A DNA stretch of 62,859 nucleotides, filler included. It is 12 parts of 12 records of this genome, joined end to end, with 100 filler letters (N's around TTAATTAATTAA, not from the genome) between each part and the next. Parts side by side here need not be neighbours in the genome. Positions count along the whole stretch, not along the records: positions 7,806 to 17,604 come from SRR7504441_6223; 11 more parts are not named here. One strand, given 5' to 3'. The stretch's first letter is position 1; each line of letters begins with the position of its first letter. The notes under the pieces are model-generated. The model saw nothing but the letters and a program-made list of their open reading frames with translations, searched no databases and was not told the DNA's origin. A program made the position numbers and the translations under genes. Below are positions 3,227 through 17,704 of this stretch, piece after piece.

Positions 3227-3326
3227 NNNNNNNNNNNNNNNNNNNNNNNNNNNNNNNNNNNNNNNNNNNNTTAATTAATTAANNNNNNNNNNNNNNNNNN
3301 NNNNNNNNNNNNNNNNNNNNNNNNNN
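3227..3326. other. Artificial contig spacer (first of 11)
   Basis: N-run + TTAATTAATTAA + N-run, 100 nt. Identical spacers at 7706-7805, 17605-17704, 20825-20924, 27252-27351, 32315-32414, 41601-41700, 44964-45063, 49940-50039, 54339-54438 and 58454-58553. Confidence 0.99.
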
Positions 3327-7705: not shown

Positions 7706-7805
7706 NNNNNNNNNNNNNNNNNNNNNNNNNNNNNNNNNNNNNNNNNNNNTTAATTAATTAANNNNNNNNNNNNNNNNNNNNNNNNNNNNNNNNNNNNNNN
7801 NNNNN

Positions 7806-10004
7806 GCTACCAGGCAGAATGAGAACCCACCTTTGCAGGATCGAAGCGATACCCACGCATCACTCTGGTGGTTTCAGACGCGTGCACTCTCAGCGCGATG
7901 ACCCTACTCACTTCGGGCTGCCGCCGGAACCTGACCGACCTGATCAGCCCTAAGCGGGAGCGACCCGGTGCTCACTGCTCGAGTTCGCGCGGGTGCCGCA
8001 GGTCGGCCACAATAATCACAGCTGGAGGCTGGCTGGCTCCAACGAGGGGCTGGCGTGCCTTGCTCTGTGCAGTTGCCGGCTCACCAGCAAACCGACCCAA
8101 AGCTCGGCGCACCAGGAGGGTGGCGCAGATCCAATCAAGAGTTGGCCGGAAGAACTTGTAGAACTCAGTCAGGCTGGTGCGGTATCGTTCCTTGTAATCC
8201 CGGTCTGCCTTCTCCAGGGAGATCAGTCTTTCGAAATCCAAACCATATGCATCAGCAAAGACCTCTTTCACGGGATCTGCCAGCCTCATGATGCGACAGC
8301 CGCCTGCAGCACAGCGTTAGAGTGAGCATCAATACCGGCAATGCCGACATGCCTGTCCTGTGGCATAACCGAGAGACCATTGGAGCAATTCGGGCGCTCA
8401 CATAGTCCTTGCCTGCAAATCCAGGCAAGCGCTCACATGATATCGGGCGAGCGCTTCTTGCCTGTGCAGCGCTTGCCTGACACCATGAGCACGAGCTGCA
8501 ACCCAGCTCAGTCTGCCAGTTGGCAGCTCGGCCACCTGAGTTGGGCCGGCGGGAAGCTCTGGCATGCCACTGAGCTGCTCCCTCACTGAGACGGGCAGCG
8601 TGGATGGGTCCGGCAGCTCACCTGAGATCGTCTGATCAGATGCAAGCTGGTCTGGGCACCCTGAGATGGTCTGCAGGCCTCTGCTGGCTCCGGAGAGCTC
8701 TCTGTGGCCAGCTGGAATTCGGACGACAAACAGGCCCAAGCGGCCAGTCTGGGCAGCCGGTTTGTCGGCCGGATGCTGATCTCTGCGCTCCGGGCGATCT
8801 TGTCCAGCCACTCTACTGCCTCCACTGGGTGCGGCCCATGCGCGGTCGCATCCAGCAGCATCAGCCCAGTGCACCCATCCAGCAAAGCGTTGGATACTCC
8901 ATTCACATCAGCCCGACTGGGCACCGCCTCACCGATCATGCTGGCCATCAGCTCGCCGGCACAGATGCACAGCTTGCCGCTGGCCGCGCACTTGCCGGCC
9001 AGCAGCTTCTGAGCCAGAGGCACTTGCTCGAGTCCGAGCTCTGCCCCCAGCCCGCCTCGCCCGATGATCAGCCCGTCGGCCACCGCCAGGATCGCATCTG
9101 CATTGGCCAATCCGGTCCGGCTCTCGATCTTCGGGATGAGCCGGGGCCTGTCGGTCGCGGGCAGCGCCTCGAGCCGGGCGACCAGTGGCGCGAGCTGGCT
9201 GGCTGTCTGGGCTGGCAGCGCAATCCAGTGCACCCGGTGCTCCACGAACAGCTCGAGGTCGTCCCAGTCCTTTGGCGTGAGCGTGCCCAGCCCGAGATCC
9301 AGCCCGGGCACGGTCAGCCGCTCGGCCGATCCGATCAGCCCAGACTGCTCCGCCCTGCACAGCACGGCCTGCTCGCTCAGCCGCTGCCGCACAGTGAGCC
9401 GGAGCGCCCCGTCCTGCAGCAGCACTGCCGCCCCGGGATCCAGCGCCCGGACCAGCTCCCGGTGCTCCGGGCTGTCGGCCAGAGTTAGCCGGCCCGGGCC
9501 GCTCAGGTCGCGTGGGTGGCCCATGATCGCCAGCCCCACCGACTGCCCGGCCTGCACCGGATGCCCGGCCGGGTCGCACGCCTGTCCGGTCCGGATCTGG
9601 GAGCCCATCAGCTCGCCCATCAGCTCGACCGGCCGCCCGATGCTCTTGGCCAGCCGCCCGATCCGCGGCAGCGCTTCCTCGAACTCGCCCGGCCGCCGGT
9701 GGGCCGCGTTGAATCGGATCACGTCGAGCCCAGCCAGCAGGCACTGGTGCATCAGCTCCGACCGCCAGCTCAGCCCGCCGATCGAACCGATCAGTCGGAC
9801 GTCCCGTCTCCCCACGGTGCGGCCGCGGCGCGGCGCGGCTGCCAAGGCCGACGCGCTGCTGTTGAGTGCCGCGGCGGCCTCGGCCACCACCTCCGCGTCC
9901 ACCGGAGTGGCATCGTACTCGGGCTCCGGCCGGGCCGCACCTGAGCCCGGCCGCCGCGGGAGCGACCGGCGCACCAGCGAGTCATCGTGGTACCCTGCTC
10001 CCAT
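7806..10004 (-). CDS. Pyruvate-kinase-like barrel fused to animal-type phosphomevalonate kinase, 3' truncated
   Basis: PK motifs RFNAAH, GSQIRTG, KIES, GRGGLG, PSRAD, NALLDG. Introns 8575-8621, 8496-8535, 8413-8461 (GC-AG) and 8304-8352 (GC-AG) lead in frame to LVLMVSGKRCTGKDYVS...RLADPVKEVFADAYGLDFERLI...YKERYR...VADLR...ALRVHASETTRVMRGY, matching human PMVK motifs. Confidence 0.85.
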
Positions 10005-10091: not shown

Positions 10092-11222
10092 ATGGCTGAA
10101 CCAACTGCTGAGGTGCCCGCAGAGCCCGCCGCTGCGGCTGAGGAGGAGGAGCTGGACCTGAACGGCAAGGTGGTCAAGCAGGTGGAGTACTACTTTAGCG
10201 ACGCCAACCTGAAGCGGGACCACTTTTTCCAGAAGGAGATGGCCAAAGACCCGGAGGGCTACATCCCGATGGCGCTGCTGCTCAAGTGCAACAAGCTCAA
10301 GCAGCTGACTGAGGACGGCAAGCTGGTGGCCGAGGCGCTCAAGGCCTCCGAGCAGGTCCTGGTGAGTGAGGACGGCGGCAAGGTCAAGAAGAAGGGCGGG
10401 GTGCCTCCGCTGGACCCGGAGGTGGCGGCCAAGGTCAGCAAGCGCAACAGCACCAAGGGCGTGTCGAGCGAGGAGCTGGAGGCGCTGATTAAGGAGAAGG
10501 CCGCTGCGGCGCAGAAGGAGCGGATCGTGTACAAGCTGAGCGGGCTGCCGGTGGGCTGCCGGTGGACTGACATCAAGGACGCGCTCAAGGAGCTGGTGGA
10601 GACGCAGGGCCGGATGCACGTGTCGCACGAGGACGGGGACACCGACGCGCACATCACGGCGTTCGCTGAAGGGAACACTGAGGCCTGGGCAGCGGCAGCC
10701 AAGCTCGGGGACAAGCTCAAGGTGCAGGAGAACGTGGTGACCATGGAGCAGCTGGAGGACCAGGCGCAGCTGCTCGAGTACTGGACGGCGGAGTTCACCA
10801 AGAACCCACCCAATGAAACGCCAAAGGCCAAGAAGATGCAGAAAAAGGAGGCAGCCACCAAGAAGCGCAAGCTGTCGAGCACTGTGACGGTCTGTGAGGT
10901 GGAATATGATTACAATGCCCTGAGGACCCGGGTGAATGAAATCTCAAAGGGGCACACGGAGGAGTTTAAGCAGCTGGAGGGGGATGAGGCCGAGTTCATC
11001 AAGGCGCTGTTCGAGCATCATCCGCGTGCGGCTGACAAGAAAGCAAACATGACTGGGGTGGCCGTCGGGGTGAATCCCCAGTTCCCCGACACCAGGTGCT
11101 TCTTTGTGGTCAAGGAGGGTGGCGAGAAGGAGGATTTCAGTTACAAAAAGTGCATCGACACTGCCTTTGGCGTTGAGCCCAAGGCGGATAGCGCAAAGAA
11201 AGCAAAGCAAGGCAATGAATAA
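10092..11222 (+). CDS. La-type RNA-binding protein: La motif, RRM2-like domain, DUF3223 (DeCL-like) domain
   Basis: QVEYYFSDANLKRDHFF...GYIPMALLLKCNKLKQLT (La motif); C-terminal HHPRAADK...GVNPQFPDTRCFFVVKEGGEKEDFSYKKCI (DUF3223); intronless. Confidence 0.9.
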   Translation: MAEPTAEVPAEPAAAAEEEELDLNGKVVKQVEYYFSDANLKRDHFFQKEMAKDPEGYIPMALLLKCNKLKQLTEDGKLVAEALKASEQVLVSEDGGKVKKKGGVPPLDPEVAAKVSKRNSTKGVSSEELEALIKEKAAAAQKERIVYKLSGLPVGCRWTDIKDALKELVETQGRMHVSHEDGDTDAHITAFAEGNTEAWAAAAKLGDKLKVQENVVTMEQLEDQAQLLEYWTAEFTKNPPNETPKAKKMQKKEAATKKRKLSSTVTVCEVEYDYNALRTRVNEISKGHTEEFKQLEGDEAEFIKALFEHHPRAADKKANMTGVAVGVNPQFPDTRCFFVVKEGGEKEDFSYKKCIDTAFGVEPKADSAKKAKQGNE

Positions 11223-17604: not shown

Positions 17605-17704
17605 NNNNNNNNNNNNNNNNNNNNNNNNNNNNNNNNNNNNNNNNNNNNTTAATTAATTAANNNNNNNNNNNNNNNNNNNNNNNNNNNNNNNNNNNNNNNN
17701 NNNN

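Follow-up and report, generated by a model that had tools for sequence, protein, structure and literature searches.

The stretch of DNA analysed here (the window, 62,859 nucleotides) joins 12 contigs of about 3-10 kb, one of which carries on its minus strand a pyruvate kinase (PK)-like open reading frame (ORF) followed by the coding sequence of an animal-type phosphomevalonate kinase (PMVK). An earlier note on this DNA had described the two as a single gene, in which two short introns of 47 and 40 nt join a catalytically dead PK barrel in frame to a PMVK domain. This observation is partly confirmed, and its interpretation as a fusion with a dead PK is partly supported. The barrel is degenerate in its catalytic motifs, the PMVK is spliced, and the same order of domains stands in one uninterrupted ORF of the diplonemid Namystynia karyoxenos (P0014). 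The intron proposed to connect the two frames is contradicted by the one RNA contig that reaches it.

The two coding frames at the locus

The PK half comprises the following features.

10004-8586, minus strand: PK-like ORF of 473 codons, starting at ATG 10004-10002 and ending before the in-frame TGA 8585-8583
8814-9806, minus strand: PK barrel (A and B domains, residues 67-397) with degenerate catalytic motifs, placed by PF00224, an alignment to human PKLR, a 10-sequence alignment and the AlphaFold2 model

In the Pfam scan, the ORF matches PF00224 over positions 2-328 of the 328 in the profile (E 4.1e-56), and PF02887 (PK_C) was not found in it at E values up to 0.1. The absence of the PK C-terminal domain and the position of PMVK (PF04275) directly after the barrel ORF thus agree with the earlier description. 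In PKs, Glu and Asp residues serve as Mg ligands, including the Asp of the RGD motif, the Thr of ATQ lies near the enolate, and Lys and Arg bind the substrate. The alignment to human PKLR bears out every motif that the earlier note had listed: KIE is retained, RGD is changed to RGG, ATQ to AGE, TKGP to LMGS and SGET to LDAT. It also reveals that N-F-S-H is replaced by N-A-A-H, the Asp preceding TKGP by Glu and the B-domain R-K-G by A-E-R, and that the D-x-x-G-P loop reads E-L-M-G-S. Among the 10 aligned sequences, the window is the sole outlier at D131E, P135S, the B-domain R-K-G, D318G, T350G, Q351E, S384L and E386A. These columns include the RGD Asp, the Thr-Gln pair of ATQ and, in SGE, both the Ser and the Glu. 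Invariant columns in this alignment number 33 and include the substrate-site Arg, Asn, Lys and Glu; R97, N99, R138, K292 and E294 are among the invariant residues, and both the Lys-x-Glu and the Arg-x-Asn residues of the substrate site are present in the window PK. The earlier claim of a catalytically dead PK is therefore well supported at the sequence level, and the PK half would be unable to convert phosphoenolpyruvate (PEP) to pyruvate. The Arg, Asn, Lys and Glu that are retained may still allow some binding of phosphate ligands.

The AlphaFold2 model, which was run on the 10-sequence alignment, has a mean pLDDT of 78 for the PK-like protein, with values of about 85-97 for the barrel and B domain over residues 80-410. 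The N-terminal 64 residues and residues 416-461 fall below 50, and the latter segment, which belongs to the linker behind the barrel, is predicted to be disordered. The top Foldseek matches in the PDB are all pyruvate kinases (E 8e-32, TM 0.63-0.72). A model of the two-copy complex scored 0.61 versus 0.02 for the best of three controls, with a contact agreement between runs of at least 91% and a partner pLDDT of at least 82, and the predicted interface lies on the barrel at residues 316-333, 350-375 and 399-410. Of the proteins solved as one-chain pairs, 21 of 30 reached the mark used for such complex models, and of those solved as single chains, none of 23 did; for eukaryotic proteins, the numbers were 17 of 29 pairs and none of 30 single chains, with just one of the seven that lack an older solved relative reaching it. 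Because PK tetramers have already been solved, the pass may reflect memory. The model is thus read as a predicted likeness to the PK-type A-A dimer surface, which falls short of proof that the window copy binds to itself. A homodimer of this type would be compatible with a scaffold role.

For the PMVK half, RNA sequences were available. A public-run search returned five seawater or marine RNA runs, each with a small share of the stretch, and four contigs (X1-X4) from four runs of four studies were compared with the locus; the spliced ones come from seawater metatranscriptomes. As these records are assembled contigs, they inform on the presence of sequences and on their joints, and not on levels. 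X1 (238 nt) aligns to 8216-8301, 8351-8407, 8457-8495 and 8536-8590 with no other letters, its final letter past 8590 being unaligned and not interpretable. X3 (182 nt) aligns to 8179-8301 and 8351-8409. The other two lie within the PK-like ORF, X4 at 8699-8849 and X2 (186 nt, depth 9.2, from a second strain) at 9305-9490. No contig covers 7807-8178, 8591-8698, 8850-9304 and 9491-10100, which is a gap in cover only and evidence of nothing.

8536-8565, minus strand: first coding exon of PMVK when the in-frame ATG 8565-8563 is taken as its start; X1 extends upstream to 8590
8496-8535, minus strand: GT-AG intron of 40 nt, spliced in RNA (one contig, X1)
8462-8495, minus strand: PMVK exon with the first part of the P-loop (X1 and homology to P0014)
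8413-8461, minus strand: intron of 49 nt, readable as GC-AG, which slides over an 8-nt repeat (X1 alone, where the aligner skips 8408-8456)
8353-8412, minus strand: PMVK exon (RNA contig and homology to P0014)
8304-8352, minus strand: intron of 49 nt, readable as GC-AG, with a slide of 5 (X1 and X3, two studies)
7976-8303, minus strand: main PMVK exon (PF04275, 3CH4 and 53% identity to the corresponding stretch of P0014)
7931-7975, minus strand: predicted GT-AG intron of 45 nt, or alternatively 7940-7975 with 36 nt (homology only)
7831-7930, minus strand: PMVK exon (homology to P0014), with a GTGGGT donor behind it at 7830; the remaining gene is lost at the contig end

The PMVK part is expressed and spliced. 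PF04275 (P-mevalo_kinase) matches a frame of 114 amino acids at 8316-7972 on the minus strand (E 2.5e-9, 37.5 bits with a cut-off of 33.8). The gene model built from the RNA junctions has no stop in 184 amino acids and shares 48% identity with residues 510-671 of P0014 (E 2e-49). Its P-loop, of the type G-K-R-x-x-G-K-D, is completed over an RNA-confirmed junction of a 49-nt intron and aligns with the P-loop of P0014. The earlier gene model did not contain the two spliced introns of 49 nt; of the two that it did propose, the 40-nt intron is spliced out in X1, whereas the 47-nt intron is not, as X1 runs unbroken across its acceptor. A further intron, either 7931-7975 or 7940-7975, is required because TGA 7974-7972 falls inside the PMVK homology; both choices preserve the frame, and the 45-nt choice matches P0014 slightly better. 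The homology extends to residue 671 of the 721 in P0014 and stops where the contig ends. Position 7806 is the edge of the contig and not the end of the gene, so that about 50 C-terminal PMVK residues are absent from the assembly. Upstream, the PMVK frame is open as far as 8907. The PMVK half is an ordinary multi-intron PMVK of the animal type, which would perform its step of the mevalonate pathway.

The three introns confirmed by RNA measure 40-49 nt and all end in TGCAG. The two of 49 nt have repeats at their boundaries and can be placed as GC-AG but not as GT-AG.

The Namystynia protein and the clade around the PK barrel

P0014 (EukProt EP01062) is a complete Trinity transcript ORF of 721 amino acids and is unannotated. 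The Pfam scan places a SAM domain at residues 5-68, a PK barrel at 102-426 and P-mevalo_kinase at 524-645. As at the window locus, the PK barrel comes first and the animal-type PMVK second, both on the same strand; the linker is of similar length and PK_C is absent. The two differ in that P0014 is one uninterrupted ORF and has an N-terminal SAM domain, and the window PMVK carries an insert of 16 residues relative to P0014. Identity is higher between the PMVK parts (48%) than between the PK parts (38%). Moreover, P0014 keeps N-A-S-H, D-L-Q-G-P-K, R-K-G, RGD, ATQ and S-x-E, all of which are changed in the window; its PK may therefore be active.

A quick IQ-TREE search on 44 rows, run without bootstraps, places the barrels of the window and P0014 as sisters (SH-aLRT 95) inside a clade of 12 rows (99). 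Left out of this tree were P0013, P0015, P0017, P0021, P0027, P0031, P0038, P0055 and the second barrel of P0011, and P0010, P0011 and P0014 were cut to single barrels. Orthology of the window locus with the SAM-PK-PMVK ORF of N. karyoxenos is the best explanation of these data.

HMMER with the PK part against 1.84 billion representatives returned 11,379 proteins at E values up to 0.001, none of them above 41% identity; the window protein is therefore not in that collection. Pfam was run on 26 database proteins (24 from the 150 best, P0006 and one repeat), and P0014 is the only one among these PK relatives with a PMVK domain. A word-index search with the PK part at near lengths gave nine matches, all of them without PMVK and at 35% identity or less. 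At longer lengths, the PMVK exon had no match in this index, and a query with the PMVK part of P0014 retrieved P0014 alone. Clusters in the ESM Atlas were plain PK or plain PMVK only. A metagenome scan with the PMVK alignment led to one locus out of 155 pattern matches (L001), which is uninformative on the join: positions 156-926 of a GC-rich metagenome contig of 1013 nt encode a stand-alone, intron-less animal-type PMVK that has an Ala/Gly-rich N-terminal extension of 50 residues and 31% identity to the spliced PMVK model of the window.

The 12-row clade consists of C-domain-less protist PKs, with rows labelled Amorphochlora, Pavlovales, Tisochrysis and Gymnodinium, and thus spans haptophyte, dinoflagellate and chlorarachniophyte rows. 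Several members are barrels only:

Barrel-only clade members: P0012, P0016, P0018 (Amorphochlora), P0034 (Pavlovales), P0028 (Gymnodinium)

Other relatives have composite layouts. P0010 combines an intact PK barrel, a degenerate barrel and an adenylate kinase; P0006 and P0008 consist of a PK barrel, PUA_2 and ATP sulfurylase; and P0011 has two degenerate barrels, the first of which carries the same Glu-for-Asp and RGG changes as the window. The fusion of C-domain-less marine-protist PK barrels to other enzymes looks like a recurring and apparently undescribed theme.

The join between the PK and PMVK frames

Three features define the region in which the two frames would have to be joined.

8591-8813, minus strand: linker after the barrel (pLDDT below 50 for residues 416-461; no RNA contig on 8591-8698)
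8583-8585, minus strand: stop codon TGA of the PK frame, retained in spliced RNA (X1)
8575-8621, minus strand: proposed fusion intron of 47 nt, GT..AG, not supported (X1 unbroken on 8536-8590, no other letters)

Since X1 is unbroken on 8536-8590, it holds 8575-8590 together with the TGA at 8585-8583, despite the removal of three downstream introns. The only contig at the junction therefore reads through the acceptor of the 47-nt intron, and the in-frame join as drawn is not supported. RNA spanning 8490-8630 had been named in the earlier note as the check on its gene model; X1 covers this interval as far as 8590, and within it the 40-nt intron is removed and the acceptor of the 47-nt intron retained. 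Thus, the fusion of PK to PMVK stands as an architecture, seen in the single ORF of N. karyoxenos, and the join that was proposed for the window does not. Besides PMVK exons, X1 contains no less than 25 nt of sequence ahead of the PMVK ATG, and the stop codon of the PK frame is part of it. PK and PMVK transcript sequence are thus shared, which leaves no room for a separate 3' untranslated region (UTR) of the one and 5' UTR of the other.

Other joins can be drawn upstream of X1. By our count, a scripted list of all joins contains 14 stop-free, frame-joining GT/GC-AG introns wholly within 8591-8698. One of these, 8659-8622 (GT-AG, 38 nt), would give a linker of 55 residues, compared with 56 in P0014. 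Codon scoring of 8622-8575 slightly prefers the PMVK frame (+5.2 versus -3.3 bits), in favour of a join. The five letters upstream of 8586 are identical to those upstream of 8622, and a 36-nt intron at this repeat (8586-8621) is possible; it would leave the TGA in frame. According to PMC12621601, median intron lengths are 37-42 nt in three diplonemids, and about 97% of the splice sites are noncanonical in the hemistasiids Artemidia and Namystynia. By these figures, the short introns of the window fit, and the join need not be GT-AG.

The linker before the TGA contains TCTCAG three times on the minus strand (8666-8661, 8627-8622 and 8591-8586), 39 and 36 nt apart and in the same phase of the PK frame, possibly as a degenerate short tandem repeat. 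The three copies make splice placement near the TGA ambiguous. Two routes other than splicing were also considered. Read-through of TGA 8585-8583 produces a frame that misses the P-loop and never enters the PMVK frame; for a -1 frameshift, the PK frame at 8800-8586 offers no slippery heptamer of the form X_XXY_YYZ. Pairing between intron ends was rejected as a criterion for the join: two of the confirmed introns and the 38-nt and 56-nt linker elements do pair, and so do 16-23% of windows in the PK ORF at similar energy, so that pairing has no discriminating power.

We favour a single polypeptide, made through an intron somewhere in 8591-8698 rather than through the 47-nt intron, and give this specific route an even chance; a PK-PMVK fusion in the window gene as such is the likelier state of affairs. 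Several observations weigh on the other side. The only contig at the junction keeps the TGA at the end of the PK frame, and no RNA record spans 8591-8698. An in-frame ATG (8565-8563) lies 17 nt past the PK stop and just before the P-loop, as for a stand-alone PMVK. The 14 in-frame options count for little because such introns arise by chance in GC-rich DNA, and the codon score covers 16 codons only. The window protein has no Pfam match to a SAM domain. The strain sampled by X2 differs from the window at 9344 and 9388, i.e., S221P and R206Q in the B domain; both differences are non-synonymous, which hints, in a very small sample, at loose constraint on the PK part. Finally, the sister grouping with P0014 may be due to attraction, because both are long branches (end branches of 1.87 for the window, the longest in the tree, and 1.21 for P0014, with a median of 0.83).

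Some of these points would be accommodated by fission of an ancestral fusion. The PK-like protein would then terminate at TGA 8583, and translation of PMVK would begin separately at the ATG at 8565, either on an overlapping transcript whose start lies within the PK gene or on a two-cistron mRNA, to give two proteins with separate actions. The retention of the TGA in an RNA from which three downstream introns were removed and the closely following ATG speak for this account, as does the fact that a stand-alone PMVK is known elsewhere (L001) and that the PK part appears freed from catalytic constraint. However, scanning ribosomes translate a second ORF behind a long first ORF poorly, here one of 473 codons, and a separate PMVK mRNA would need to start inside the PK coding region. 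The 5' end of X1 shows neither a spliced leader nor any other foreign sequence, and the ortholog P0014 is one ORF. Fission is a tentative possibility that we take seriously without thinking it probable. Alternative splicing, with the 47-nt GT-AG intron 8621-8575 removed in some transcripts and X1 as the intron-retaining form, is improbable. It could draw on a good donor (CAG|GTGAGC), on an acceptor GCAG as in the three confirmed introns, on a CTCAG 12 nt upstream that resembles the CTGAG in the 40-nt intron, and on a join that is in frame and yields a linker of 52 residues. Nevertheless, this intron is not spliced out in the sole contig that reaches it, even though three neighbouring ones are, and the nearer AG at 8587-8586, which follows a pyrimidine-rich run, would compete with its acceptor and produce the 36-nt intron, with which the TGA stays in frame.

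It is also improbable that the PK-like part is a relic in decay that serves today as no more than an upstream leader or untranslated sequence, with PMVK alone being of importance. The many altered catalytic columns, the longest branch in the tree and the two non-synonymous strain differences would agree with decay, and long ORFs often arise by chance in this GC-rich stretch, where other frames hold ORFs of 304-350 amino acids. Against decay stand 473 codons without a stop or frameshift, a Pfam profile that is covered from end to end, 33 columns invariant over 10 relatives, some of them in the substrate site (Arg, Asn, Lys and Glu), and a fold that is predicted with confidence. The Glu-for-Asp and RGG changes shared with P0011 also suggest a maintained type of pseudo-PK.

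Under the favoured explanation of a single polypeptide, the locus would be a lineage-specific gene copy for a PK barrel plus PMVK. In the ancestral protein, an active PK may have adjoined PMVK, plausibly regenerating ATP from PEP and the ADP made by PMVK; because P0014 keeps RGD, ATQ and the other motifs, we prefer ATP regeneration, the second choice of the earlier note, as a guess at the role of the ancestral fusion. In the lineage of the window, the PK would have lost catalysis and would persist as a folded, probably dimerising N-terminal module. The PK half can then be viewed as a fast-evolving barrel-only PK that probably keeps its fold and its PK-type dimer surface, and the dead PK as a possible non-catalytic module that dimerises PMVK. 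A role of the PK part as a sensor or scaffold is an inference only. A bolder version is that the locus represents an undescribed, conserved PK-barrel plus PMVK fusion of a marine protist lineage, shared with diplonemids, as one instance of a broader tendency to connect barrel-only PKs with nucleotide-using enzymes (adenylate kinase, ATP sulfurylase, PMVK) as a local ATP supply, and that the window PK is a dimerising pseudoenzyme that still binds PEP or phosphate ligands and ties mevalonate flux to the glycolytic state. As a whole, we consider this version rather unlikely.

Genomic setting, significance and known relatives

The gene next to the locus lies head-to-head with the PK-like gene at 10092-11219 on the plus strand and encodes a La domain (PF05383, E 1e-22) together with DUF3223 (E 1.6e-16). 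Only 87 nt separate the PK-like ATG from the start of this divergent gene, a spacing that suggests a compact genome in which the two genes share a promoter region. The Rfam scan of the entire window gave no match, and thus no spliced leader or snRNA. The 12 contigs meet at 11 joints:

3227-3326, 7706-7805, 17605-17704 and eight more, no strand: artificial contig joints, each with a linker of the form N44-TTAATTAATTAA-N44

As the window is made of joined contigs, genes at contig edges are truncated, and neighbours across a joint are not true neighbours.

In agreement with the earlier note, which did not know the fusion from the literature, no paper describing a PK-PMVK fusion was found in the portions of text that full-text searches made accessible. 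The same holds for the accessible literature on PMVK in diplonemids. In PMC9512073, as far as its text was available, PMVK is named only in a figure legend. Should the two halves belong to one protein, the fold of a glycolytic enzyme would be tied physically to a reaction of isoprenoid synthesis. The apparently active PK of Namystynia and the dead PK of the window would then form a natural before-and-after pair, which helps to ask how enzymes become pseudoenzymes within fusions. If they are made separately, the locus is instead a tidy example of a fusion that later underwent fission, and of local interest only. The finding also draws attention to a little-noticed clade of C-domain-less marine-protist PKs, which are repeatedly fused to ATP-handling enzymes.

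Compared with known enzymes, the window PK shares the barrel fold, the Lys-x-Glu and Arg-x-Asn residues and the predicted A-A dimer surface with canonical PKs, such as human PKLR (4IMA) and E. coli PykF (8EQ3). In contrast to the window PK, canonical PKs (PF00224 plus PF02887) end in an alpha/beta regulatory domain and keep the Asp that binds Mg, the Thr-Gln pair, the SGE residues Ser and Glu and the B-domain Arg-Lys. The window PMVK resembles animal-type PMVKs (PF04275, 3CH4) in scoring above the curated cut-off, in having the same type of P-loop and in a size that fits up to the contig end. It differs from them by its position behind a PK barrel, by its weak similarity to human PMVK (E 0.0024) and by a C-terminus that lies beyond the assembly. 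A further comparison is offered by the protist PKs of the same clade, which, like the window, have a barrel without PK_C that often stands ahead of another nucleotide-handling enzyme. Apart from P0014, however, none of the 25 database proteins scanned has a PMVK domain.

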